Made by a program: the position numbers and the translations under genes. The notes below the pieces were generated by a model. That model made no database searches, was not told the origin of the DNA, and saw only the letters and a program-made list of their open reading frames with translations. A stretch of 64,000 nucleotides of DNA from positions 123,384 through 187,383 of the forward strand of contig JBAYKL010000001.1 of the NCBI GenBank assembly GCA_041664585.1, in the 5' to 3' direction. Source of the DNA: Minisyncoccota bacterium (GTDB taxonomy: Bacteria; Patescibacteriota; Minisyncoccia; Phycocordibacterales; GWA1-40-21). Of the stretch, positions 1 to 12,892 are shown in pieces. The number at the start of each line of letters is the position of its first letter. Positions within the stretch are counted from its first letter, which is position 1.

Positions 1-1089
1 TCCAATTATCGTTAAGTGTGGATTCTTACCATATATCTTAAAAGGTGTCTCAGAATTCTGGTTTTTTATCTTTTCTACAAACAGATTAGATAAATCCGTA
101 TTTGCTATCATCATTATTTCTAAAGGAGCATCTTTTTCTTCACATATCCTCTTTAAAGCTCCATTAAAATTTTCTGACCACTTACTCAAACCAGTTTTTA
201 TAAAATTATTTACTTTTATATCTGTATCTTCATCACACTTTCCATGGCACTTGATGTTTAGTGTTGATAGAACTAAATCTTTTGTCATTTTTAAGTCTTT
301 TGCAATATTTTCTATAATAGCATTCTCACCAAAGGGAAATGATGCTATCCCGTGTATTGTGTCATCAATAACGACATAAATATCTGTAATGAGTTTACCG
401 ATATCTACATATATGAAGTTATTTTTGTTTTGAAACAAATCCCTAGTAAAAGTAAACGTAGAGAGAGTCTGAGAATGTGAACAACTTTTATCTCCCTTCA
501 ATTTTTTATTTGAATAAGTTTTAATCTTGTCATTTATCTCCTTTGCTATAAAAGATGTAAACAAGTGAACTTCAAATTCCTTTGCTTTTCTATTATAAAA
601 ACTATCTACTTTATAACCATTAAGTTTAGCCTCAACTATTTTTTCCTCAAAGACTTCCCACCCGCCACGTTCACTCTCCTTTTCAATTTCTTTCTTCAAA
701 TTTTCTTCTTTGCCCACTAAAACCCTCTTAAGAAAATCACCATCCACAGAAAAGGCCTTGTCTTTTGTTAGTTTTATAGACTTTCCTTTAGATACAACCC
801 ACGGAGAACCAACAAAGAAAAAATGGTTGGAAATTTTATTTTTAATTCCAAGCGATATAAGAGATTTATGTGTTTCTATTATAGCCCTATCTATTGTCTT
901 TATAAGAGATTCGGAATATTTTTTATAACTTGCAATCTCTGATTCAATAACCTCGAAAGTCTGACAAGAAATAATTTCTGATTTCTTGCCTCTAAACATC
1001 TCAACCACAGCGGCAGTCAGAGAAAATTCTCGAATATCAAAAACAATGGATAAAGATGGGCTTTTTTTTGAAAAAGAAAAAAACTTCAT
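1..1089 (-). CDS. Partial CDS running off the left edge. Actin-like ATPase fold protein, FtsA/PilM-like.
   Basis: Manual translation of the minus strand from ATG (cat at 1087-1089) gives an ORF open through position 1: MKFFSFSKKSPSLSIVFDIREFSLTAAVVE... with a phosphate-2-like motif FIYVDIGKLITDIYVV. It is missing from the ORF track because the stop lies outside the window. Confidence 0.45.
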   Translation of the reverse strand, partial: MKFFSFSKKSPSLSIVFDIREFSLTAAVVEMFRGKKSEIISCQTFEVIESEIASYKKYSESLIKTIDRAIIETHKSLISLGIKNKISNHFFFVGSPWVVSKGKSIKLTKDKAFSVDGDFLKRVLVGKEENLKKEIEKESERGGWEVFEEKIVEAKLNGYKVDSFYNRKAKEFEVHLFTSFIAKEINDKIKTYSNKKLKGDKSCSHSQTLSTFTFTRDLFQNKNNFIYVDIGKLITDIYVVIDDTIHGIASFPFGENAIIENIAKDLKMTKDLVLSTLNIKCHGKCDEDTDIKVNNFIKTGLSKWSENFNGALKRICEEKDAPLEIMMIANTDLSNLFVEKIKNQNSETPFKIYGKNPHLTIIG

Positions 1090-1134
1090 GTAAGTTAATT
1101 ATAACTCTCAAAGAAAAGCGATGCAATAGAAAAT

Positions 1135-2964
1135 TTATTCCAAAACTGCTTTTATACGTCTAACCCCAGCACTTGAAGCTTCTTCTTTAGAAATTTTGAA
1201 GTGTCCGAGTTCAAATGTATTTGATACATGAGGTCCACCACAGAATTCTGTACTGAAATCCCCTATTTTATAAACCTTCACGACATCTCCATATTTAGAT
1301 AAATCAAAAGAAAGAGTTGTAACAATTTTCTTTGCTTCTTCTTTTGGCAATTCAAGCATTTCTACAGGAAGCTTTTCTTGTATTTTTTGATTTACTAAAT
1401 CTTCAACGTTTTTTAATTGGTCTGCAGTGAGTTTCTCTGTCCAATTGAAATCAAAGCGCATTCTTTCTGCTGTAATATTGCTTCCTTTCTGTACAATTTC
1501 TCCACCAAGGACTTTTCTAAGTGCCGCGAGTAATAGGTGGGTGGCTGTATGATATTTTGTCTCCACTTCTCCTGTACCAGCTAAACCTCCTTTGAATTTT
1601 TGTTCTGAGCCAGCCTTTGATTTTTGGTGGTGAATTACAACCTCATCAGAAAATTCTTTCATATCAATAAACAACCCTTTTTCTTTTCCTAATTCCATTT
1701 GTATCTCTATAGGCAACCCTTTTGATTGGTATAAATCGAAAGCAACTTTTCCAGAGACTTTTCCAGAGACTAATTTATCCTCTTTTGTAGCTTCTTCAAA
1801 TTCTTTTAAACCTTGTGCTAAGGTCTTCCTAAACTTATCATCCTCAGTCTTAATCACTTCTAAAATTTCATTTCCTTTTTCATTAAGTATTGGATACGCG
1901 TAAGAGAGTTCATTTATAACAACTTTTGCAAAAGATAATATTTCTTCTTTATTTATATCGAGCTGATCTATAAATCTGATAGCTCTTCTTAGGATTCTTC
2001 TGAGCACATATCCGGCTTCAGTATTTGATGGAACGACACCATCAGAAATAATCATAACAGCTGAACGAATATGGTCTGCGACGATCCTTTCGGCTCTCTC
2101 ATCTCTCTTTTGTGCTTTAGATTTTATTTCTCCAAGAATTTTTTCAAATAAATCTGTATCAAATACCGTACTCTTTCCTTGCATAACGACAGTGGTTCTC
2201 TCAAGACCCATTCCAGTATCCACATTTGGCTTTGAGAGTTTCTCGTATTTACCTTCCGAAGTTTTATTAAACTCCATAAAAACATTGTTCCAAATTTCTA
2301 TGATTCTTCCGCTTTTTACCAAATCAGAAAATTTACCGGCAACAGGACCATCTTCTGGACGAGTATCATAAAACATTTCAGTGTCTCCACCGCAAGGACC
2401 CACCTGACCAGCTATCCAAAAATTATCTTCCTTTCCTAAAGGAATAATTCTTACACCGTCTTTTATAATTTCATCTTCTTCCGCGACTTCTACATCTATA
2501 TTATGTTTCTTAAAATTCTCCTTCCAAATTTGTATGGCGTCTTCGTCTCTTGGAATATCATCCTCACCCTTAAACACAGTTACATAAAGTCTGTTTGATA
2601 GAAGACCAAGTCCTTCTTCTTTACTAGTGATAAATTCTAAGCTCCATTCAATAGCTTCCTTTTTAAAATAATCCCCGAGAGACCAATTACCCATCATTTC
2701 GAAAAATGTAAGGTGTCTGTTATCACCAACCTCATCTATGTCTATAGTTCTTACACATTTTTGTACATCGACAAGTCTAATACCTCCAGGGTGTTTTTCA
2801 CCGAGTAAATAGGGTATGAGAGGCTGCATACCAGCTGTAGTAAACAGAGACCCCTTATCAGGAATAACATAATCTGTGGGTATTAAAGAAGCAGAAGGAA
2901 TTATTTTGTGTCCCCTTTTCTCAAAAAACTTTAAATACCTCTCACGAATATCTTTTGATTGCAT
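1135..2964 (-). CDS. alaS: Alanine--tRNA ligase, short form lacking the C-terminal DHHA1/C-Ala domain.
   Basis: 609 aa. Has the class II catalytic core and the editing-domain motifs HTATH and CGGPH. It ends just after the editing domain. Confidence 0.9.
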   Translation of the reverse strand: MQSKDIRERYLKFFEKRGHKIIPSASLIPTDYVIPDKGSLFTTAGMQPLIPYLLGEKHPGGIRLVDVQKCVRTIDIDEVGDNRHLTFFEMMGNWSLGDYFKKEAIEWSLEFITSKEEGLGLLSNRLYVTVFKGEDDIPRDEDAIQIWKENFKKHNIDVEVAEEDEIIKDGVRIIPLGKEDNFWIAGQVGPCGGDTEMFYDTRPEDGPVAGKFSDLVKSGRIIEIWNNVFMEFNKTSEGKYEKLSKPNVDTGMGLERTTVVMQGKSTVFDTDLFEKILGEIKSKAQKRDERAERIVADHIRSAVMIISDGVVPSNTEAGYVLRRILRRAIRFIDQLDINKEEILSFAKVVINELSYAYPILNEKGNEILEVIKTEDDKFRKTLAQGLKEFEEATKEDKLVSGKVSGKVAFDLYQSKGLPIEIQMELGKEKGLFIDMKEFSDEVVIHHQKSKAGSEQKFKGGLAGTGEVETKYHTATHLLLAALRKVLGGEIVQKGSNITAERMRFDFNWTEKLTADQLKNVEDLVNQKIQEKLPVEMLELPKEEAKKIVTTLSFDLSKYGDVVKVYKIGDFSTEFCGGPHVSNTFELGHFKISKEEASSAGVRRIKAVLE

Positions 2965-3017
2965 AAGAGAAATATAACATAATATTTGATCTAAAAAAAG
3001 ATGTGCACAAACTTATA

Positions 3018-3046
3018 TTGACAGGTTAGATAATATATCCTATTAT
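3018..3046 (+). promoter_or_regulatory. Sigma70-like promoter: TTGACA, 17-nt spacer, TATTAT.
   Basis: Consensus -35 and -10 hexamers with 17-nt spacing lie about 45 nt upstream of a strong RBS (AAGGGAGG) and a small ORF. Confidence 0.45.
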
Positions 3047-3090
3047 ATTGTCTGAACTTAGTTCCAAATTTTCAACCAAGGGAGGCTTAG

Positions 3091-3234
3091 ATGTGCAAGT
3101 CGTGTTTAAAAAAGTTTCTTATAGCATGCTTAGTAATAAGCGTACTAAGTGTTCTGTGCATTTACCAAATCATAGAATTTGGGAAGATTATTAAGGAAAC
3201 CTGCAAGGAGGCACCGAGTGAGAAAAAAATATAG
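3091..3234 (+). CDS. Small Cys-containing membrane peptide (47 aa), hypothetical.
   Basis: AAGGGAGG RBS 7 nt upstream of the ATG. Sequence MCKSCLKKFLIACLVISVLSVLCIYQ... It sits between a promoter and a terminator. Confidence 0.3.
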   Translation: MCKSCLKKFLIACLVISVLSVLCIYQIIEFGKIIKETCKEAPSEKKI

Positions 3235-3386
3235 TCACTGGCAATACCTTCGACAAGAAATCATCGTGGGTATGGTAGCAACATTCATTTTGGCACTATT
3301 TATTGTGCCTATGATAGAACTTAACAAAATTGGCCTGCAACACCAAAAAATAATGGGTGCCTCGACAGCCTCCAAATAAAGCAAAC

Positions 3387-3416
3387 TCGCCCCAAAATCA
3401 ATGGGGCGATTTTTTA
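3387..3416. terminator. Intrinsic terminator, bidirectional.
   Basis: Stem TCGCCCC/GGGGCGA followed by a T-run. It abuts the stop of the minus-strand UDG gene. Confidence 0.5.
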
Positions 3417-4043
3417 TATATTTTTTAGAATTTCAAAATCTTTTTTTAGTTCACCAATCCTTGTTGGATTATATACAGCAACACAAGGGTGATATAAAAC
3501 AGCAATTTTTATTTTTCCATAGGAAGCCTCTGCTTCAAAAACTTTTCCATGCGCCATGCCTATTGGTAATATTTCATTTTCCAAACCAAATCTTCTCATA
3601 ATATAATCCATGGAATACCTACCTAGAGTAGCAATTACTTTGGGTTGGATAATCTCAATTTGTTTATCCAAAAATGGACCGTAAATTTTTATTTCTTCTG
3701 CAGTAGGGTCACGATTCTCTTGTGGCCTATCTTTTACAATGTTTGTTATATAAACATCTTCTCTCTTAATCCCAACATGATAAAGTAAACCGTCTAAAAC
3801 TTTTCCAGCCGTACCACAAAATGGCCTGCCAGTTTTAGCTTCGTTTCTACCAGGAGCTTCTCCAATAAACATTATTTCCGCGCCATGATTCCCTTCCCCT
3901 ATAACTGGAAAATATTTATTACTAACTCTATATTCATATAATGGAGAATCTTTTAAAAACAAGACTTCGTCTTTAATTTCCTTTAATTTTCCTGTTCTAT
4001 CAGAAGACATATCTTTAATTAAACTGTGCCTTGCAGTGTTCAC
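3414..4043 (-). CDS. Uracil-DNA glycosylase, family 4 (4Fe-4S type).
   Basis: GEGNHGAEIMFIGEAPG...GRPFCGTAGKVL motifs. An alternative start at 4010 (MSSDRTGK) would remove the 29-nt overlap with the upstream gene. Confidence 0.85.
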   Translation of the reverse strand: MNTARHSLIKDMSSDRTGKLKEIKDEVLFLKDSPLYEYRVSNKYFPVIGEGNHGAEIMFIGEAPGRNEAKTGRPFCGTAGKVLDGLLYHVGIKREDVYITNIVKDRPQENRDPTAEEIKIYGPFLDKQIEIIQPKVIATLGRYSMDYIMRRFGLENEILPIGMAHGKVFEAEASYGKIKIAVLYHPCVAVYNPTRIGELKKDFEILKNI

Positions 4044-4869
4044 ACAAAGAATTTACTTCAGTAATTATGCTTTTTATTTTCTTCTCATCAAAATTTACTT
4101 CCTTAAGCAAGTTCTCATCTAAAAGAGCCTTGGACAAAACAACACCTCTGGCAAGAAACATATTTTTTTCTATTGTATTTATAGATGTAAGAGCCGTAAT
4201 TGGAATGAGCTCGGCCCTCTCTATCATATTGTGTAAATTATTTCCGTAAGGATAGTTCCAACCAACGAGCTTGAGGTGCGGCTGACATTGATCATACTGA
4301 ATAGCGGTGGAACTAAATTTTGTATTAGTAACAATCCAACCCTCTGTAAGTTCTCTTTCCTTTCCTCCAAATACATATCTATTCCCGTACAAGTCGTCAT
4401 ATCTTGCCTTAACATATAAAACAACTTTGAGATCCGACTTTAAATTAAAATCTGTGTGAAATTTTGCTTCTGTCATTATAAGTTCACCCTCTTTCCAAGC
4501 GACAACATCTATCTCATGTTCTACGCACTTACCTTTTACTATCACTCCAGTCTCAGTCTCATATCCTTGAGACTTAAAAATTTCTGCAACATATTTTTCA
4601 AAAGGGAAACCGGTAGGACCAAGCTCGGCTACTGCTTTTTTCAAAGAATATCTAAGAGATACTGTCTTTTGTTTTTTTCTTAAAATAGAATAGGCTCTCT
4701 TATATATTTCTCTTGTGGTAATTCCTTCATGAAGCTCCTTTGCTATTTCTTCCAAAATTTCTTTTACAACAAGATCATCAGTACCAATTTTTTTAAGTGA
4801 TGCTTCTAATTTTGAGTAATCGAAAACCTCTCTCTCACCGTTAGATTTAATTATATATATTTCGGGCAT
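4015..4869 (-). CDS. ATP-cone domain fused to an Mrr-like PD-(D/E)xK restriction-endonuclease-fold domain.
   Basis: The N-terminus IYIIKSNGEREVFDYSKLEASLKKIG is an ATP-cone signature. The C-terminal half has HEIDVV...LIMTEAKF (D...ExK). Start chosen at MPEIY (4869). Confidence 0.6.
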   Translation of the reverse strand: MPEIYIIKSNGEREVFDYSKLEASLKKIGTDDLVVKEILEEIAKELHEGITTREIYKRAYSILRKKQKTVSLRYSLKKAVAELGPTGFPFEKYVAEIFKSQGYETETGVIVKGKCVEHEIDVVAWKEGELIMTEAKFHTDFNLKSDLKVVLYVKARYDDLYGNRYVFGGKERELTEGWIVTNTKFSSTAIQYDQCQPHLKLVGWNYPYGNNLHNMIERAELIPITALTSINTIEKNMFLARGVVLSKALLDENLLKEVNFDEKKIKSIITEVNSLCEHCKAQFN

Positions 4870-4902
4870 AAGTAAATAATACCACAAAACCAATAATTCA
4901 AG

Positions 4903-5967
4903 CTAGCAGATTATTCCACCACCAAGACAAACTTCCCCATCGTAAACCACTGCGGACTGACCCGAAGAAATAGCTTTCTGCGGACTAGTGAAATGTAATT
5001 CTATACAATTACCTACTTTTTTTATTTCACATTCTTCTAAAGGCTGTCTGTAGCGAATCCTTGCAGAGTATCTTTTATTTAAATCTGGCATCTCATCTAA
5101 CGTCCAACTCATATTCTTTAGCTTTACTATTTTTGATTCACTTTCAATTATCTTAGCTGAATCTTGAGATACGGTAATTGTATTTTTTTCTATATCTTTA
5201 GAGATAATATAATATCTGGAATCATTAGGAGTTTTTTCTGTAATCTTGAAACCATGTCTCTGACCGATAGTAAGAAAAAGTACTCCATCGTGAACCCCGA
5301 TCTCCTCTCCTCTTTCGTTTAAAACTCTTCCCGGAATTTCTTTTATATAGTGAGTTAGAAATTCTTTCATATCAAATTTACCAAGGAAACAAACTCCCTG
5401 ACTATCCTTTTTTACAGCAGTAGAAAGTCCTAATCTCTTCGCGATCTTTCTTACTTCTGGTTTTTCTATGTCACCAATTGGAAAAAGTGTTTTACTAAGT
5501 TGTTTTTGTGTAAGAGTCCAAAGAAAATATGTCTGATCTTTGTTTGTGTCTTTCCCTGCAAGCATTTTATTTCCTCCGACTCTTGCATAATGCCCCGTAG
5601 CAACAAAATCTGCACCTTGCTCCATTGCCCAATTAAAGAAACCGCCAAACTTCACGTACTTATTACACATTACATCTGGATTTGGAGTTCTGCCAAGCTT
5701 ATATTCATCTATCATGTAGTCAGCTACATCTTTTTTATATTCTTTTTCTAAATCAAGAGTAAAAAATGGAATATTTAATTTAGCACAAATGCGCATAGCA
5801 TCTAACCTATCTTCTCTCCAAGTACATTTTACAAAGTCTGGTTGCCAAACTTTTATAAAAACACCAGTTACATCATAACCTTCTTTTTGAAGTAGTGCAG
5901 CAGAAACAGAGCTATCAACTCCGCCAGACATACCAACAAAAACTTTTTTCTGCTGTTTTCTCAACAT
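4903..5967 (-). CDS. mnmA: tRNA-specific 2-thiouridylase MnmA.
   Basis: VGMSGGVDSSVSAALL PP-loop and the MnmA C-terminal domains. Confidence 0.9.
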   Translation of the reverse strand: MLRKQQKKVFVGMSGGVDSSVSAALLQKEGYDVTGVFIKVWQPDFVKCTWREDRLDAMRICAKLNIPFFTLDLEKEYKKDVADYMIDEYKLGRTPNPDVMCNKYVKFGGFFNWAMEQGADFVATGHYARVGGNKMLAGKDTNKDQTYFLWTLTQKQLSKTLFPIGDIEKPEVRKIAKRLGLSTAVKKDSQGVCFLGKFDMKEFLTHYIKEIPGRVLNERGEEIGVHDGVLFLTIGQRHGFKITEKTPNDSRYYIISKDIEKNTITVSQDSAKIIESESKIVKLKNMSWTLDEMPDLNKRYSARIRYRQPLEECEIKKVGNCIELHFTSPQKAISSGQSAVVYDGEVCLGGGIIC

Positions 5968-5968
5968 A

Positions 5969-5997
5969 TTGACTTTATACCATATAAAATGTATGAT
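5969..5997 (+). promoter_or_regulatory. Sigma70-like promoter (TTGACT, 17-nt spacer, TATGAT), copy 1 of a repeated promoter module.
   Basis: ACATATTGACTTTATACCATATAAAATGTATGAT. It is nearly identical to the module at 6499-6527. Confidence 0.5.
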
Positions 5998-6042
5998 TTC
6001 AATCGAATTTGTTGTTTCAAGTTACATAAATAGGAGGTTCGT

Positions 6043-6451
6043 AGTGTCAGTAAAGATTGGTCAGGAGTTTAAAAGACCGGGGCGTTGTGATTTGGTCGTT
6101 TGTGGTATTTCCCCAGATGGAAAAATACAAACATACCAAAAAATCAAAATTCCAGGTTGGAAAGTTAAACAAGCGTTTGAAAAGAAGATCAGGATTGTAC
6201 CAGGGACAATTTTGGATTTACCGAACAAACAAAAAAGAGAGGTGCTGGGTCACTGTGGTACCGATTGGTACATGAAGATTCCTGGAGAAATTTTGGAATT
6301 TACCGAGGAGCAACTTATCGATTTCGATGCAGGTGCAGAAATAGAAAAAGAGCTCAAAAGAATCGTCGGCAATTCACCAAACAACATACATGTGAGTAGG
6401 CCCAAAAGCATAAGATTTTCTCGTTGTAGGAAAGCTTTTGTGGAAAACTAA
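6043..6451 (+). CDS. Hypothetical protein (about 136 aa).
   Basis: GTG start 5 nt after a perfect AGGAGG RBS. The track ORF from 5969 begins inside the promoter, so the shorter start is preferred. Confidence 0.4.
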
Positions 6452-6461
6452 ATCACAGCAG

Positions 6462-6496
6462 CCGCCCGAGCATTTTTGCAAAGGCGGTTTTTTATT
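6462..6496 (+). terminator. Intrinsic terminator.
   Basis: CCGCC...GGCGG hairpin plus a T-run, immediately followed by the next TTGACT promoter. Confidence 0.45.
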
Positions 6497-6498
6497 TA

Positions 6499-6527
6499 TT
6501 GACTTTGTATCATATACAATGTATTGT
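6499..6527 (+). promoter_or_regulatory. Sigma70-like promoter, copy 2 of the repeated module.
   Basis: TTGACTTTGTATCATATACAATGTATTGT, about 85% identical to 5969-5997 over some 30 nt. Confidence 0.5.
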
Positions 6528-6573
6528 TGAAAATGAAATTGTTGGCTCAAAAACATAAACGAAAGGAAAGAAA

Positions 6574-6876
6574 ATGAGCTTTTTAAATATACTTCCATGG
6601 GTACTTCTGACTATAGTTTCCATAATCGGATTCTACAAAAACCAACCCCGTCGACTTTCAGAACTCAGTGGAAAAGAGAGGTTTGTTGTCGCCAGCTATG
6701 AGAGCAAAAAATATTTCTATGTGATTGTCCATAGGAGTTTAAAAATCGTCGTGTACAAACACAAAATAAATAAAATCGCCAGTAAAGAACAACCCTTTTT
6801 ACAAGAAATGAAAGAGGGGTTGTACAAATTTTATGATATTGGTGATGGAGAAATTATGGTAAACCTCATTGGTTAA
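6574..6876 (+). CDS. Hypothetical small membrane-anchored protein.
   Basis: N-terminal transmembrane segment (ILPWVLLTIVSIIGF). It has its own promoter and terminator. Confidence 0.4.
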   Translation: MSFLNILPWVLLTIVSIIGFYKNQPRRLSELSGKERFVVASYESKKYFYVIVHRSLKIVVYKHKINKIASKEQPFLQEMKEGLYKFYDIGDGEIMVNLIG

Positions 6877-6884
6877 TCACTTTA

Positions 6885-6910
6885 AACCGCTCTTAAAGGC
6901 GGTTTTTATT
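6885..6910. terminator. Intrinsic terminator, bidirectional.
   Basis: AACCGC-loop-GCGGTT followed by TTTTTATTTT. It abuts the ychF stop. Confidence 0.5.
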
Positions 6911-8008
6911 TTATATCTTAAATTCAATCACGTCCCCATCCTTCACCACATATTCCTTCCCTTCTGTACGAATCAAACCTTTTTCTCTGGCTTGTCCATG
7001 TGAACCAACATTTAATAGCTCCTGCCAAAAGACAACTTCGGCTCTAACAAATTTATCTTTAAAATCTCCATGTATCGCTGTACCAGCAAGAGGAGCTGTC
7101 CAACCTTCTTTTATCGTCCAAGCACGGCTTTCATCTTCTCCAGTAGTGAAATAGGTAATGAGACCAAGAAGCTTATAACCAGCCTTAATTAAATTATCTA
7201 TTCCATCATCTTTTACTCCTAGCCCTTCTCTCATTTCTTTTTTGTCTCCTCCTTCCAAATCTTTTAATTCTTGCTCTATTCCAGCATCCACAATAACATA
7301 CCCGGATTTTGTTTCTTCAAAAAACTTTATCAATTTTGTAAATCTTTCGTCATTCATTTCGTCAAGATTTTTCCCCCCAGCTTTTTTATTTAAAACATAT
7401 AGAATTGGCTTCATCGTAAGAAGACAAAGTTTAGCCACTTCCACAATTTCTTTTTCATCGAAAGAGATTGATCTGGAAAGTTTACCTTCTTCAAGTACAA
7501 CTTTTAACTTCTCTAACGCCCCTTTTTCAATCACGGCAGATTTCAATCCTCTTTTAATATCGCTTTCTACATTTCCTAATCTTTTAGAAACAGTTTGTAA
7601 GTCGGCAAGTATGAGCTCTAAGTTTATAGTTTCAATATCAGAAAGTGGATCTACTTTATTTGAAACATGAAGAATATTGTCGTCTTCAAAAATACGTACA
7701 ACTTCTGCTATAGCATCCGTCTCACGAATGTTTGTAAGGAATTTATTACCCAATCCTTCACCGGCAGAAGCTCCTTTTACAAGACCTGCAATATCTACGA
7801 ATTCTACAGCAGCAGGAACGGTCTTAGCTGATTTACTAAATTCAGAAAGCTTCCAAAGCCTATCGTCAGGCACAGCAACAACCCCCACAGAGGGGTCTAT
7901 TGTACAAAATGGGTAGTTCTCACAAGCAACAGCTTTCTTTGTAAGCGCGTTAAAAAGAGTACTTTTCCCAACATTTGGTAAACCAACGATTCCAATTGAT
8001 AATGACAT
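6911..8008 (-). CDS. ychF: Ribosome-binding ATPase YchF (Ola1).
   Basis: GIVGLPNVGKSTLFNALT P-loop and the TGS-like C-terminus. Confidence 0.9.
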   Translation of the reverse strand: MSLSIGIVGLPNVGKSTLFNALTKKAVACENYPFCTIDPSVGVVAVPDDRLWKLSEFSKSAKTVPAAVEFVDIAGLVKGASAGEGLGNKFLTNIRETDAIAEVVRIFEDDNILHVSNKVDPLSDIETINLELILADLQTVSKRLGNVESDIKRGLKSAVIEKGALEKLKVVLEEGKLSRSISFDEKEIVEVAKLCLLTMKPILYVLNKKAGGKNLDEMNDERFTKLIKFFEETKSGYVIVDAGIEQELKDLEGGDKKEMREGLGVKDDGIDNLIKAGYKLLGLITYFTTGEDESRAWTIKEGWTAPLAGTAIHGDFKDKFVRAEVVFWQELLNVGSHGQAREKGLIRTEGKEYVVKDGDVIEFKI

Positions 8009-8047
8009 ATAAAGTAAAGATACCTAAAAAAAGACTAAAAGTAAAAT

Positions 8048-8491
8048 TTATTTTTTAGAATCTTCTAAATAATTCAAAACAGCTTTTTTTAAAGCTTCAT
8101 GTCCCAGAACAGAACAATGAAACTTTCTGTCTGGTAAACCACCAAGGCGATCTACTATCTGTTGTGGTTTAAGTGTCTGCGCTAGATCTAAATCCATTCC
8201 ACCTTTTTCTGTGGCCATGACAGACATCATGGAAGCCGCGGCTATAGCAGAAGCACAACCAAAAGTTCTCCATTTACATTCCTTAATTTTACCTCTCTTC
8301 TTATTAACCTTAATCCAAACATTCATAATATCACCACACGCAGGACTACCAACACTTCCAAATCCATCTGCATCATAATCTGTTTCATCAATTAGAATAT
8401 TCCTAGGAAAAAAGAAATGTTCCTTAACCTCTGGGCTATAAAACCACCCTTCGCCATCACAATTATTTTTTTTGTCTTTTGTTGTAGTCAT
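8048..8491 (-). CDS. iscU: Fe-S cluster assembly scaffold, NifU/IscU N-terminal-domain type.
   Basis: GSPACGD, GCASAIA and HCS cysteine-ligand motifs. Confidence 0.8.
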   Translation of the reverse strand: MTTTKDKKNNCDGEGWFYSPEVKEHFFFPRNILIDETDYDADGFGSVGSPACGDIMNVWIKVNKKRGKIKECKWRTFGCASAIAAASMMSVMATEKGGMDLDLAQTLKPQQIVDRLGGLPDRKFHCSVLGHEALKKAVLNYLEDSKK

Positions 8492-9657
8492 TTTATTGTA
8501 GAAATACTTCTTATATAGTTCACACCTTCTGATAGAATCCTTACGACGTAATTTAAATCTTTTTTCCTTGTATGTCTTCCAAGCGTTAAACGAATACTAC
8601 AATGAGCAAACTCTGAAGATACTCCAATATTACGTAATACATAAGAAGGTTTTAAATCAGAAGAAGAACACGCTGAACCAGTTGAGCAATATATACCTTT
8701 ACTATCAAGAAACAACACTAAAGATTCACCCTCAACCCCTCTTATTGAGATATTAAGATTATTTGGTAAACGATTCTTTAAATCACCGTTCAAAGAAACG
8801 CCATTAATTTCTGACAAGATTTTAGACAAGAAGTAATCACGAAGCTTTTTCAATCTTTGATTTTCTTTTGCCCTCTTTTTTTCAGATATAACAAGCGCCT
8901 CAGCGAAACCTACGATGGCAGCAACATTTTCTGTACCAGATCTTAAACCCCTTTCTTGACTACCACCAATAATAACAGGATCAATAAAATATTTTTTATT
9001 TAAATAAAGGCAACCGATACCTTTTGGACCGTATATCTTTGAAGAACTGATCGTTAGAGCATCAACACCAAGATCTTTTATGTCCAAAGACAAAGCACCA
9101 GATGCTTGGCATGCATCGCAATGAAAGATTGGGGTAGAAATAGATTCTTTTAAAATTTTTGATATTTTTTTAATTGATTGTATTGTACCAATCTCATTGT
9201 TCGCATACATAATTGATACCAAAATAGTATCTTTTTTAATACTAGATTTAAGTTGTTCTAAGGAAATAATCCCCTCTTTATCTACATCTAAATAGGTTAT
9301 TTCAAAACCCTCTTTCTCTAATTTCTTACAGGGATCCAAAACCGCTTTATGTTCAATACAAGATACAATTATATGTCTACCTTTATTCTTATATGCTCTT
9401 GCGATTCCAAGAATCGCTAAATTATCAGACTCAGTACCACCACTAGTAAATATGATTTCATCTTTTTCTGAATTTAAAATACTAGCAATATTTTGTCTAG
9501 CTTTTTCTATAGCACTTTTAGCCATTCTACCCTGGTGGTGTAAAGATGATGGGTTTCCATATTTTCCTTTTAAATACGGCATCATAACACCCAAAACCTT
9601 TGAATCAATTGGGGTGGTCGAAGCATTATCTAAATAAATCTGAGCAGTCCTTTTCAT
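8488..9657 (-). CDS. iscS: Cysteine desulfurase (NifS/IscS class).
   Basis: YLDNASTTP N-terminus and the PLP-lysine region. Start at MKRTAQ (9657). Overlaps iscU by 4 nt. Confidence 0.9.
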   Translation of the reverse strand: MKRTAQIYLDNASTTPIDSKVLGVMMPYLKGKYGNPSSLHHQGRMAKSAIEKARQNIASILNSEKDEIIFTSGGTESDNLAILGIARAYKNKGRHIIVSCIEHKAVLDPCKKLEKEGFEITYLDVDKEGIISLEQLKSSIKKDTILVSIMYANNEIGTIQSIKKISKILKESISTPIFHCDACQASGALSLDIKDLGVDALTISSSKIYGPKGIGCLYLNKKYFIDPVIIGGSQERGLRSGTENVAAIVGFAEALVISEKKRAKENQRLKKLRDYFLSKILSEINGVSLNGDLKNRLPNNLNISIRGVEGESLVLFLDSKGIYCSTGSACSSSDLKPSYVLRNIGVSSEFAHCSIRLTLGRHTRKKDLNYVVRILSEGVNYIRSISTIK

Positions 9658-9684
9658 ATAAATATACTGTATCAAACAAACATC

Positions 9685-9720
9685 AAAAAAACAAAAACCG
9701 CGAGGGTCGAGTCCTCACGA
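9685..9720 (-). terminator. Intrinsic terminator for the 9748-10401 gene.
   Basis: CGTGAGGACTCGACCCTCGCG hairpin followed by a U-run on the minus strand. Confidence 0.5.
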
Positions 9721-9747
9721 TTTTCGTATCTTTATGTTTATTAATAA

Positions 9748-10401
9748 TTAATTAGAAGTCTGAAAAGCTCTAGGTAAGACCAAAGTTATGTTTCCAGAAT
9801 TATCTACCGCACGAATTAAATAATAATAAACAGTATTTGGTTGGAGATTCTGAATTGTTATTGATTGAGAATAACTAACACCAGAATTATTTGGGGCTAA
9901 AACACCACTAACATATGCCTGATCACCACGAAATGATGACTCGTTAGACTGAATCATCGTTGCATCATAATATAATTGTCCTCTAGCTGATTCGTTTGTT
10001 GACCAACTAATCGTTGCACTGTTACGACCAGATTGAATATTGATATTAGATATGCTTGGTGCATTAATATCCAGACCAAAGCCTGACAACATGATGTCAT
10101 TTATTTTTGAAGCTGTAATTGGACCGACAGTACCAACTTGTGAAATTCCGTAGTTTACTTGAAATTGTGTTACAGCATCTTTGGTTAATGCACCATAATA
10201 TCCACTGACAATTCCTTGGGGATATATAGAATTATTTGTTGCTAAAAACTGCTGAAGTTCTGTAACCTGAGATCCTTTTGATCCAAGTCCGAGCTGGCTA
10301 GTTATTGCTGCACTAACTGTTTGTGCTGTAAAGAATGATACCAAAAGAAGTATCGCTAAAACACCGACCGTAGAGAAACCGAGTATATTTATTTTTTTCA
10401 T
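9748..10401 (-). CDS. Secreted protein: signal peptide, peptidoglycan-binding domain (PG_binding_1-like) and fibronectin-III-like domain.
   Basis: Signal peptide, then GSKGSQVTELQQFL...GYYGALTKDAVTQFQ, then TISWSTNE...TVYYYLIRAVDNSGN. Confidence 0.65.
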   Translation of the reverse strand: MKKINILGFSTVGVLAILLLVSFFTAQTVSAAITSQLGLGSKGSQVTELQQFLATNNSIYPQGIVSGYYGALTKDAVTQFQVNYGISQVGTVGPITASKINDIMLSGFGLDINAPSISNINIQSGRNSATISWSTNESARGQLYYDATMIQSNESSFRGDQAYVSGVLAPNNSGVSYSQSITIQNLQPNTVYYYLIRAVDNSGNITLVLPRAFQTSN

Positions 10402-10500
10402 AGTATTTTTAAGATTAAATTCGAGTAATTATTGTTTGTGTAATCGACCTTTTTGTACATTTATGCCTCTATAATAGATGCCGTCTCAAAGAGAAAAATA

Positions 10501-11136
10501 TTACAATAGCTCCTTATCACTAAAAACCACAGTTCTATTTGAATAGTTTTTTAAAACCTTATTCCAAGTACCTCCACAAGTAATAAGATTTAAATGGGAA
10601 AGTCCATCAGTTGAATTAAATACATCTGAGGCATCATCCGTATATTTGTAATTTTTAATTTTACTTACAATAAAAATAGTTGTATTTTTATTTTCATCTT
10701 CAATATATATTTTATCTCCTATTTTTACCTTGCTCAAATTGTCAAAAACTCCAAGGGTATTATTCTTATAGCCAAAATGTCCCGCGATTACAGAACTACC
10801 TATTCCACCTGGAATTGTACCGAGCCTATACCATCCAACCTTGGTTGGATCCTTAGGCGACTCCATCTCACCAGTTAACGTAAGTCCAATGTACTCGAAA
10901 GAAGCATTAACACTAATTACTGGTATCGTAATATGTACGGGTAAATCTTTTTCTATTTGAACCATACTTACTTGTTCTATTTTTTTGATACCAAGCACAG
11001 ACGAAAGATCTCTGATAAGTTTAATCTTGTTATTATATTCCAGTGATTTAGAAAAAACAAAATTTAAAGACAACAAAATTATAATTCCCAAAACACTCAC
11101 TATTATTAATATTATTTTAAATATTTTCATTTTCAT
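10501..11136 (-). CDS. Sortase-family transpeptidase.
   Basis: N-terminal membrane anchor, catalytic His (VIAGH) and the LITCGG Cys motif. Confidence 0.8.
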   Translation of the reverse strand: MKMKIFKIILIIVSVLGIIILLSLNFVFSKSLEYNNKIKLIRDLSSVLGIKKIEQVSMVQIEKDLPVHITIPVISVNASFEYIGLTLTGEMESPKDPTKVGWYRLGTIPGGIGSSVIAGHFGYKNNTLGVFDNLSKVKIGDKIYIEDENKNTTIFIVSKIKNYKYTDDASDVFNSTDGLSHLNLITCGGTWNKVLKNYSNRTVVFSDKELL

Positions 11137-11206
11137 ATAAATTAAACATGAAATGACCCCGCCAAGGCGGAGCCATTTCCTGCCTCTAAATAAATTTAAT
11201 GAATAC

Positions 11207-12892
11207 TTATTCTAAGTGGGCTCTACTTATACCTGCAGCAATTCTTACTCTTTTAAGAATCCAAACAAGTGTGGTCGAAATTAAGGAGACAATTATGACC
11301 GCTATAATTATATTTAACGCCATATTGCCAGTTTCAGGAAATATCCCTGTATTTGGGAACCTTGGAGTAACTGCAAGGATAGGGCTGATTATCGCGGTAC
11401 TCGAAGAGATACTGACATTACCAATTGGTAGAGATACTGACCCCGTCGTAGACACAACTGGCGTAGAGGTAGTTGCGATGACAATCTGCCAGGGTTGGGC
11501 TATATCATTATTTATAATTGTACAAACCTTATTCTGATTAGTATCTAAAACCAAGACACCATTAACATCGCAATCCCCAGAAAAAGATTGGGTATAATTA
11601 GAATTAGAAATTTCTCTTATTGTATAACTAGAAGTACGGAAAGTTGTCGTCGCACCAGACGCGACTTGTGCATCATTAACAAATAATGGAAAGTCTGCAA
11701 CAATTTTTGTTCCTCCATCATCGTTTATAACCACTTTATTAACAGTAATAGTACCGTACCTTACAATTCTATGAGGAATGGCTGTGTTAGTGATTGTACA
11801 AGTTTTATTATCACCAGAAGAAAGAGTCACGCTACCATTAGCATTACAATCTCCACTAAAAGATTCATTATAATTTGTATTAGCATCTTCACTTACTGTA
11901 TATGTACCAGCGGAAAGAGTATATGGAGTACCTGGAGATCCAGCTCCAACTAAAGGACTTCCAGAGACATCTGCATTCAATGAATTTTTTACATGAAGCA
12001 TAAAATCTGATGGGGCAGCAACGCCACCACTAACGACTTTAATAACATTAAGAGTGGCTGGACCAGAACCAGAAATGCCAGAAACAGAATTAGCATCCAT
12101 CGTAACCTGTGTTTGTGACAAGGCTCTACCATTTAGAACAGCACCTGTTTGCATAACGATATCTGTTGCACTCAATATATTTCCGTTGAAGGTAGAATAT
12201 GTACCAAGGGTTGCTCCTGCGCCACCACCAACCTGCCAAAAAACGTTTGAGGCCAAAGCTCCTCCCGTTAGTATAACTTTTGCCCCAAGTGGAATACTTC
12301 CATATGATGGGACAATAAGGTTCCCTGCTATTTGAAATATCCAAACATCACTGGCGCCACCATTTAAAGTAACTTCATTTAATGTTGCTGTTCCATCTAT
12401 TAAAGAAACATTCGTAGTCCACTTATAAAGCCCTGGAGCAAAAGTTTGTCCTCCGATAAGTCCAGAATATAAATTTGTACCGTCTGGTAAAGCTCTCCCA
12501 GCTGCATCAGTATAAGCAGTTTCCATATTACTTATAGAAGTAGTCATATAAGAAGGGGTTGGCGCTGTATAATTAGCTGCGTATATTCTTCCTGTTACCA
12601 AAGCTGATGTAGAAAATGTGTTAGAAACATCCATAACCGGTCCAAAGCCAGTCATATAACTCGCTGCGGCCGGACTGATTCCAATGTTTCCGACAACGGT
12701 TGCGCTACCGGTATTCGTAATGGCTGTTTTCGCTAAAATAGAAAAACCTCCAGCTAAACCAAGATCTACAGAGGATGGTCCTAATGCCAATGTTGTTATT
12801 GGCCCCACGAGACCAAATACAGACGATATGGCTATTGTTGCTAATATTAATTTTTTATTAAACTTATTCATTTTTTTTATTATCTTATTCAT
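11207..12892 (-). CDS. Cell-surface protein with an N-terminal DUF3494/ice-binding-like domain, two tandem repeats of about 90 aa, and a C-terminal sortase sorting signal.
   Basis: Signal peptide. LGLAGGFSILAKTAITNTGSATVVGNIGISP is the DUF3494 hallmark. Repeats SFSGDCNANGSV...CTITN and SFSGDCDVNGVL...CTIIN. C-terminus FPNTGIFPETG, then a hydrophobic helix, then KRVR. Confidence 0.75.
   Translation of the reverse strand: MNKIIKKMNKFNKKLILATIAISSVFGLVGPITTLALGPSSVDLGLAGGFSILAKTAITNTGSATVVGNIGISPAAASYMTGFGPVMDVSNTFSTSALVTGRIYAANYTAPTPSYMTTSISNMETAYTDAAGRALPDGTNLYSGLIGGQTFAPGLYKWTTNVSLIDGTATLNEVTLNGGASDVWIFQIAGNLIVPSYGSIPLGAKVILTGGALASNVFWQVGGGAGATLGTYSTFNGNILSATDIVMQTGAVLNGRALSQTQVTMDANSVSGISGSGPATLNVIKVVSGGVAAPSDFMLHVKNSLNADVSGSPLVGAGSPGTPYTLSAGTYTVSEDANTNYNESFSGDCNANGSVTLSSGDNKTCTITNTAIPHRIVRYGTITVNKVVINDDGGTKIVADFPLFVNDAQVASGATTTFRTSSYTIREISNSNYTQSFSGDCDVNGVLVLDTNQNKVCTIINNDIAQPWQIVIATTSTPVVSTTGSVSLPIGNVSISSSTAIISPILAVTPRFPNTGIFPETGNMALNIIIAVIIVSLISTTLVWILKRVRIAAGISRAHLE

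Follow-up and report, generated by a model that had tools for sequence, protein, structure and literature searches.

What would a nucleotide sensor of the ribonucleotide reductase (RNR) type be doing on a nuclease? This question is raised by a gene on the minus strand (4015..4869) of a 64,000-nucleotide stretch of a Minisyncoccota bacterium genome (contig JBAYKL010000001.1, positions 123,384 to 187,383), hereafter the window. Based on the listing of open reading frames (ORFs) and the sequence itself, this gene (the target) encodes a protein of 284 aa and ends with a TAA stop codon at 4015-4017. The product is made up of three domains: an ATP-cone, an Mrr-like PD-(D/E)xK nuclease and a C-terminal domain like that of the Archaeoglobus fulgidus protein AF1548. 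We give an even chance to the explanation that it is a housekeeping endonuclease gated by adenine nucleotides, one that teams up with another nuclease or a glycosylase to repair DNA or turn over nucleic acids. Of the two roles offered by a first, sequence-only reading of this DNA, a DNA-damage nuclease regulated by deoxynucleoside triphosphates (dNTPs) or ATP is plausible and is the best supported for the window's lineage.

Domain architecture and conservation

The target frame is open and intact over 4015-4893 of the minus strand, with an ATG start codon at 4869. The resulting start of the product (MPEIYIIKSNGEREVF..., opening with MPEIYIIK) agrees with the N-termini of close homologues, and an identical (100%) protein is found on five public contigs. 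The AlphaFold model of the 284-aa product has a pLDDT of 95.4 and a pTM of 0.90.

The N-terminal domain (residues 1-82; 4624..4869, minus strand) is an ATP-cone, as the sequence-only reading had proposed. Pfam PF03477 matches residues 4-68 above its gathering threshold (E-value: 3.6e-8; 34.3 bits, gathering 25.8), and most homologues also carry a precomputed match to this family. The predicted structure agrees: the AlphaFold model has the beta-hairpin lid (residues 5-7 and 13-15) above a four-helix bundle that is characteristic of the fold, with helices assigned to residues 18-27, 32-45, 52-66, 68-74 and 76-81, and the domain is structurally nearest to NrdR-type ATP-cones. When a family profile of the N-terminal domain was compared with solved structures, matches were obtained to NrdR (E-value: 6.7e-4), NrdD (E-value: 1.5e-3) and NrdA (E-value: 0.018). 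This profile replaced a single-sequence phmmer search of residues 1-88 against the PDB, which had returned annexin and designed-repeat noise and an RNR at an E-value of 0.64. In their original description of the ATP-cone, Aravind, Wolf and Koonin (2000) reportedly called the domain "evolutionarily mobile".

The adenine pocket of E. coli NrdR consists of Lys53, Glu59 and Lys65 over Val51, Phe61, Leu66 and Ile108 (bioRxiv 10.1101/2025.03.28.645925). In a profile alignment, NrdR V51, K53, E59, F61, K65, L66 and I108 correspond to I6, K8, E14, F16, K20, L21 and I55 of the target. Conservation was assessed in an alignment of the target and 90 representatives, each only 34-47% identical to it. Among these 91 sequences, K8 is kept in 90, I6 in 88 (as I or V), K20 in 87, F16 in 86, I55 in 74, L21 in 68 and E14 in 66; T52, like K8, F16 and K20, is at least 90% conserved. 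Nucleotide binding by the target cone is a well-supported prediction from sequence.

The cone is joined to the nuclease by the most conserved stretch of the family, the motif L-G-P-T-G-F-P-F-E (residues 83-91; 4597..4623, minus strand). Within it, G84, G87, F90 and E91 are invariant, while P85 and P89 are kept in at least 90% of the sequences, and motif scanning picked GP[STA]G[FY]PFE as the most conserved family pattern. The last residue of the motif, E91, is the invariant Glu on the first helix of the nuclease.

The nuclease core follows (residues 92-210; 4240..4596, minus strand). Mrr_cat (PF04471) matches residues 87-202 above its gathering threshold (E-value: 8.7e-7; 29.5 bits, gathering 21), and here too the predicted structure agrees with what had been proposed. 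The pentapeptides first taken as signs of an intact active site do contain the catalytic residues: EIDVV holds D121 (4507-4509), and TEAKF holds E134 (4468-4470) and K136 (4462-4464). Fifteen positions are invariant in the alignment, namely G11, G84, G87, F90, E91, G113, E119, D121, E134, K136, R156, D159, N182, W204 and P223. Because E91, D121 and E134-x-K136 are among them, the PD-(D/E)xK catalytic set is intact throughout the family. The spacing of these residues agrees with that of the triad predicted for AF1548. The closest structural neighbours of the nuclease domain (AspBHI, MspJI, FokI, NucS and LlaBIII) are all DNA enzymes. Some sources name homologues of the target as the Holliday junction resolvase Hjc (PF01870); this assignment was rejected, as neither a profile match nor close structural similarity was found.

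In addition to the catalytic residues, C115, H118, H138 and C195 are at least 90% conserved in the family. They flank the catalytic motifs (C-V-x-H-E-x-D and E-x-K-F-H, plus C195), and may bind a metal or act as a redox-sensitive pair.

Residues 211-284 (4018..4239, minus strand) form an AF1548-like helical domain of SAM/helix-hairpin-helix (HhH)-like type, a putative nucleic-acid-binding or oligomerisation module. The match to AF1548-like_C (PF22357) at residues 223-274 is weak and below threshold (13.6 bits, gathering 23.9); homology to AF1548 in both sequence and structure extends over the nuclease and the C-terminal domain. The outline given by the sequence-only reading, of roughly 90 aa of cone and 180 aa of nuclease, has to be revised: the cone runs to about residue 82, and a nuclease core of about 92-210 is followed by the separate helical domain. 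The fusion itself is confirmed and cannot be put down to chance.

Family distribution and the structure of AF1548

A word-indexed search with the target returned 3,249 relatives, the best 120 of which are all 280-301 aa in length, at least 65% identical to the target and labelled either "ATP cone domain-containing protein" or "restriction endonuclease". In an exhaustive HMMER comparison with representatives at 50% identity, 1,171 clusters were matched at an E-value of ≤ 1e-3, 806 at ≤ 1e-10 and 439 at ≤ 1e-30, with full-length coverage in almost all of the best 150 matches; a search seeded with the Pontibacter homologue gave more than 7,500 proteins at an E-value of ≤ 1e-10. Species-level genomes carrying the gene belong to Patescibacteria, many Bacteroidota, Babeliales, Parachlamydiales and Balneolaceae; cultured Bacteroidota with the gene include Flavihumibacter, Gramella, Bizionia and Christiangramia. 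Overall, homologues of ~280 aa run to thousands, in Patescibacteria, Bacteroidota, Chlamydiota, Dependentiae and many Archaea. In a search with the crystallised AF1548 sequence, nearly all of the 120 archaeal relatives listed have an ATP-cone, Mrr_cat and AF1548-like_C. Their hosts are Archaeoglobi, Geoglobus, Ferroglobus, Korarchaeota, Bathyarchaeia, Aenigmarchaeota, Nanoarchaeota and Altiarchaeales. The three-domain layout is thus the norm of the family in Bacteria and Archaea. What had been taken for an unusual combination is a large family of fixed architecture, and the target is an ordinary member of it, already labelled in databases. NCBIfam holds no model specific to the family.

The only solved structure of the family is that of AF1548 (PDB 1Y88), deposited by a structural-genomics project as a "protein of unknown function". 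Its best match is an Archaeoglobus ORF of 265 aa (99% identity; L092:6001-6798), which opens with a canonical ATP-cone N-terminus (MLRVRKRDGRLEEF...) and continues with GPSGFGFEKF-VARLLEEHG. The native sequence of 1Y88 begins at about residue 91 of this ORF, just past the invariant junction, and the annotated AF1548 start (MVARLL...) falls at the codons AAG TTT GTG, within the first nuclease helix. A comparison of the two sequences suggests that 1Y88 is most likely a mis-annotated, start-site-truncated product that lacks the ATP-cone; the record would thereby be corrected, with a regulatory domain most likely absent from the entry. AF1548 has been called a "predicted restriction endonuclease" with no further function (PMC1821046), and a survey of the PD-(D/E)xK superfamily groups 1Y88 and COG1787 with Mrr (PMC3424549). 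The sensor-less structure may be the reason that the family has been filed as predicted restriction endonucleases or Mrr-like enzymes.

Literature on the ATP-cone together with nuclease, Mrr or restriction endonuclease yielded no paper on the fusion. That it is functionally uncharacterised, as first stated, holds for the searchable literature, in which no functional study was found.

Gene neighbourhoods in Patescibacteria

In the window, the target lies between mnmA and a uracil-DNA glycosylase (UDG) gene, all on the minus strand, a co-linearity that the sequence-only reading had noted. Upstream, separated by a 33-nt gap, is mnmA (4903..5967), encoding a tRNA 2-thiouridylase (Pfam tRNA_Me_trans, E-value: 1.6e-75). 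Downstream is the gene for a family-4-type UDG (3414..4010; Pfam UDG, E-value: 1.7e-32), the ATG of which, at 4010, lies 4 nt past the target stop; an alternative GTG at 4043 would overlap the target. The gene order around the target is SufS/NifU, YchF, MnmA, target, UDG, alanyl-tRNA synthetase (AlaRS), IF-1, ribosomal proteins and RpoA, and this block belongs to the housekeeping core of a Paceibacterota genome.

The UDG stop is followed immediately by a GC-rich, terminator-like hairpin (3387..3409, minus strand) with an 8-bp stem containing six GC pairs. This is a match to the consensus only, and it is likely to mark the end of an mnmA-target-UDG transcription unit. In the gap between mnmA and the target (4870-4905, minus strand), TTGAAT is followed by TGgTATTAT, the -10-like element ending 6 nt before the ATG, and no obvious Shine-Dalgarno sequence precedes the target ATG. 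This segment could serve as an internal promoter for a near-leaderless mRNA; its spacing is non-canonical and it was not called by the promoter scan, the results of which did not exceed shuffled expectation (16 found vs 12.2 +/- 3.8).

To place this arrangement, ORFs were called in 160 related loci, 80 from species genomes and 80 from metagenomes, and neighbours were classed by BLAST against Pfam-annotated exemplars. Counts are over the 147 loci with downstream genes, and a downstream partner is one encoded on the same strand within three genes of the target. The mnmA gene is upstream in 62 loci. A Cas4/RecB-like PD-(D/E)xK nuclease (PDDEXK_1) is downstream in 41, a family-4 UDG (UDG4) in 29 and one or both in 60, often at a spacing of -4 to +13 nt. 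The usual order in Patescibacteria is mnmA-target-(Cas4-like)-(UDG4)-alaS, and the synteny of the target locus is housekeeping in character and conserved across 40-94% identity.

In Patescibacteria, the gene immediately following the target most commonly encodes this Cas4/RecB-like nuclease, often with UDG4 next. The nuclease is ~245-290 aa in length and has Cys pairs at its N- and C-terminus (L046:4024-4860; also L103, L108 and L120). No copy is present in the 64-kb window.

Gene neighbourhoods in other lineages

Fifteen of the 147 loci have a beta-CASP nuclease or a thymidine-phosphorylase-family gene as a downstream partner. Outside Patescibacteria, a beta-CASP/RMMBL metallo-hydrolase is downstream in 12 loci, mostly as the very next gene, and several of these genes overlap the target homologue by 4-11 nt. 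The beta-CASP partner carries an RMMBL domain and resembles aCPSF1 and Cas14-type beta-CASP RNases, below curated cut-offs. Plasmids of Pontibacter actiniarum (Bacteroidota; full-length protein WP_237151220.1) and Criblamydia sequanensis (Chlamydiota) carry a full same-strand cassette of target homologue, MBL/beta-CASP protein, thymidine-phosphorylase-family enzyme (AMP-phosphorylase-like by NCBIfam) and ribose-phosphate pyrophosphokinase (PRS). In Criblamydia, the cassette is flanked by genes for phosphoketolase, glycogen phosphorylase and acetate kinase. Two Bacteroidota metagenome contigs have the same order: Usp, a K+ channel, GAPDH-like, SDF, PFK and 2-hydroxyacid dehydrogenase genes precede the target homologue, which is followed by beta-CASP, phosphorylase, PRS, an unknown 227-aa protein, PPK2, a P-type ATPase and MFS. 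The cassette loci are L087:7001-14855, L091:1541-18407, L081:1972-6597 and L082:5995-10602. The cassette is partial in further loci and absent from the Sporocytophaga locus. This four-gene set (nuclease, beta-CASP nuclease, thymidine/AMP-phosphorylase-like and phosphoribosyl pyrophosphate (PRPP)-synthase-like proteins) is conserved but unstudied, and it looks like a low-energy nucleotide-catabolism module.

An unannotated protein of ~226 aa accompanies the cassette (L088:7924-8601 and L091:13664-14347). Its N-terminus resembles a signal peptide, it has no Pfam match, and its copies in two Bacteroidota islands share 70% identity. A low-oxygen locus of Burkholderia (lxa) was considered as a cassette carrier and set aside: a phosphorylase/MBL cassette is not mentioned there, and it is kept as a loose analogy only.

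In Archaeoglobi, the homologue abuts or overlaps an upstream membrane transporter gene (L092:5193-6798, L093:4958-7721 and L094:3722-6807). It overlaps the gene of an MscS-type channel by 35 nt and that of CorA by 1 nt, DUF389 being downstream in the latter case, and it trails an amino-acid permease-Usp fusion by 2 nt; the homologue is thus either translationally coupled to the transporter gene or its direct successor.

Predicted role and alternative explanations

The data above show how the domains are arranged, which catalytic and nucleotide-pocket residues are conserved, where the family occurs and which genes surround it; nucleotide binding, gating, the substrate and the physiological role are what we infer, as follows. 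The target would be a cytoplasmic Mg2+-dependent endonuclease of Mrr-like PD-(D/E)xK fold, the activity of which is probably coupled to the adenine-nucleotide pool. The N-terminal ATP-cone would bind ATP and/or dATP, and the signal would pass to the catalytic centre via the invariant GPxGFPFE junction that carries the catalytic-site Glu. Nucleotide-dependent oligomerisation, as in RNRs and NrdR, is probably also involved, and the AF1548-like helical domain would help to hold the nucleic acid or the oligomer. Vertically inherited and housekeeping in nature, neither restriction nor defence, the enzyme would make an initial cut that a partner exonuclease (Cas4-like or beta-CASP) extends. The partner would be a family-4 UDG and/or a Cas4/RecB-like exonuclease in Patescibacteria, and a beta-CASP nuclease in Bacteroidota and Chlamydiota. 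The UDG partner in the window's lineage suggests incision during uracil or other DNA repair or processing, which would proceed only when nucleotide and energy supply allows; such nucleotide-licensed repair would make sense in nucleotide-scavenging Patescibacteria. That the most frequent partner in chromosomal housekeeping and metabolic contexts is a second nuclease or a glycosylase supports this explanation.

Several points weigh against it. Approximately half of the 147 loci have no nucleic-acid partner within three downstream genes, partner genes vary from lineage to lineage, and the transporter neighbours in Archaeoglobi are not accounted for by any current explanation. In Patescibacteria, the synteny with mnmA and alaS may be historical rather than functional. 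The canonical KRDG motif of the ATP-cone reads KSNG in the target, although E. coli NrdR has KSND at this position. Degenerate, non-binding ATP-cones occur, and nucleotide binding by the target is predicted from its residues alone. DNA rather than RNA is the substrate that we infer.

The main alternative is that the protein is the entry enzyme of nucleic-acid catabolism or nucleotide salvage under energy or oxygen limitation. At low ATP, the nuclease and the beta-CASP exonuclease would degrade RNA or DNA to mononucleotides, from which the thymidine/AMP-phosphorylase-family and PRPP-synthase-like enzymes would yield bases and ribose phosphates for energy or salvage. The tight same-strand cassette of the two plasmids and its repetition in the two metagenome contigs favour this, as do the Usp, PFK, 2-hydroxyacid dehydrogenase, PPK2 and P-type ATPase genes of those contigs, the flanking genes in Criblamydia and the beta-CASP overlaps (-4 to -11 nt). 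An adjacent trio in Bradyrhizobium diazoefficiens, bll3115-3117 (MBL-fold hydrolase, PRS and thymidine-phosphorylase-family protein), belongs to the core microoxic proteome (PMC6515984) and is induced at low oxygen; its likeness to the cassette partners is one of annotation alone. Within Bacteroidota, however, the cassette occurs in a minority of loci: among 50 non-Patescibacteria genome loci, a beta-CASP gene is found in 10 and the phosphorylase and PRS pair in four. The cassette partners are absent from the 64-kb window and nearly absent from Patescibacteria loci, and DNA repair accounts better than bulk degradation for the HhH/SAM-like domain and for partners of the UDG and Cas4-like kinds. 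We regard this alternative as unlikely for the target, at roughly half the weight given to the repair or turnover endonuclease.

An ATP-gated nuclease directed at RNA, acting in tRNA or rRNA processing or decay, is improbable. Its appeal lies in the tRNA-related neighbours in Patescibacteria (mnmA upstream and alaS downstream) and in the RMMBL "RNA specificity" domain and RNase-like character of the Bacteroidota partner. The nearest structural relatives of the nuclease domain are nonetheless DNA enzymes, the genes directly downstream in Patescibacteria encode the DNA enzymes UDG4 and the Cas4/RecB-like nuclease, and Rfam detected no structured RNA nearby (window positions 1-12000).

Slightly less probable again is a restriction (Type IV, Mrr-like) or anti-phage nuclease that is set off when infection shifts the dNTP/ATP pool, the other role offered by the sequence-only reading. 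The catalytic domain does belong to Mrr_cat, public labels read "restriction endonuclease", the superfamily survey cited above places 1Y88 and COG1787 with Mrr, and there are weak, partial PADLOC matches to PDC-S02 (19.8 bits) and, over the nuclease segment 85-146 only, to CARF_PDDEXK (19.3 bits), too weak to be usable. Four lines of evidence point the other way. First, Pfam and structure comparison found no Mrr_N or other modified-DNA reader domain in the target, the ATP-cone being its sole N-terminal domain. Second, in the neighbourhood check that had been suggested, the 90 genes immediately adjoining non-Patescibacteria members were matched to families, of which the top 25 included no methyltransferase or recognised defence family and beta-CASP as the only recurrent nucleic-acid family, and the target itself stands in housekeeping synteny conserved over a wide range of identity. 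Third, tblastn found no relative in 50,697 phage records, a scan of 2.9 M IMG/VR contigs with the best-conserved motif of the family gave none either, albeit with poor sampling of Patescibacteria phages, and plasmid copies number only 2 of 72,556, both within the metabolic cassette. Fourth, a near-universal fixed architecture and retention in reduced genomes are atypical of defence genes. Type IV membership was rejected, as no N-terminal reader, defence or mobile context or methyltransferase partner was found in these searches.

Finally, a non-catalytic, NrdR-like nucleotide-dependent DNA-binding regulator that keeps the nuclease fold only for DNA binding would fit the NrdR-like cone and the precedent of PD-(D/E)xK domains that have lost catalysis and serve as binding modules, but it is very improbable given the invariance of E91, D121, E134 and K136, the lack of a Zn-ribbon and a TIGR00244 score of 14.1 bits vs a cut-off of 124.65, on which NrdR membership was also rejected.

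Taken at its broadest, the adenine-nucleotide-gated endonuclease would show ATP-cone allostery, for the first time, acting on something other than the control of ribonucleotide reduction. ATP-cones are known as a switch that balances dNTP synthesis, in RNR and NrdR; the same control logic would be extended to DNA repair or nucleic-acid turnover. The family would then be a universal (bacterial and archaeal) set of endonucleases switched by ATP/dATP or adenylate charge, and DNA would be cut, or nucleic acids broken down, in step with the supply of nucleotides and energy. In nucleotide-scavenging Patescibacteria, uracil and other repair would be restricted to times when dNTPs are available; in Bacteroidota and Chlamydiota, a catabolic "nucleic acid to ribose-phosphate" route, induced by hypoxia or starvation, would be opened. 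This wider proposal is tentative, and we think it more apt to fail than to hold. The family is very large and is kept in minimal genomes (Patescibacteria, Dependentiae and Chlamydiota), and its presence in culturable Bacteroidota and Archaeoglobi makes these predictions directly testable. The findings also speak against calling thousands of database entries "restriction endonuclease" as a matter of routine.

Other features of the window

The alanyl-tRNA synthetase of the window (1135-2964, minus strand) is only 609 aa in length and ends at the tRNA_SAD domain; AlaRS in related Patescibacteria loci is ~580-630 aa, and the bacterial norm is ~870 aa. A 561-aa protein (11207-12892, minus strand) has an Ice_binding-like domain and a C-terminal membrane anchor and adjoins a sortase (10501-11136, minus strand); it is probably displayed on the surface of this Paceibacterota organism through attachment by sortase.

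Comparison with known systems

An ATP-cone-controlled nuclease, if confirmed, would be a variant on two known themes, ATP-cone allostery and sensor-gated PD-(D/E)xK nucleases. The closest relative of known structure is AF1548, the crystallised chain of which lacks the ATP-cone and the GPxGFPFE junction that the target has. Where Mrr and Type IV enzymes (such as the proteins with the AspBHI and MspJI catalytic domains) have a modified-DNA reader, the target has an ATP-cone; it also adds the AF1548-like C-terminal domain, and it sits among housekeeping or metabolic genes, not in a defence island. In NrdR, the effector is a Zn-ribbon DNA binder and the cone is C-terminal, whereas the target has a nuclease as its effector and carries the cone at the N-terminus. 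Compared with the ATP-cone "activity site" of class I and III RNRs, the enzyme presumed to be controlled in the target is a phosphodiesterase and not a radical reductase, and no RNR domain is present. The PD-(D/E)xK effectors of CRISPR type III and CBASS systems (Can2, Card1, Cap4 and NucC) use CARF or SAVED sensors for a cyclic oligonucleotide ligand, while the target has an ATP-cone, a presumed ATP/dATP ligand, no cyclase or CRISPR neighbour and no defence context; membership in the CARF/SAVED-nuclease effectors (Can2, Card1 and Cap4) was rejected on the identity of the sensor. The structure-specific endonucleases XPF, Mus81 and Hef, in which a nuclease domain is combined with a helix-hairpin-helix domain, are also among the systems closest to the target.

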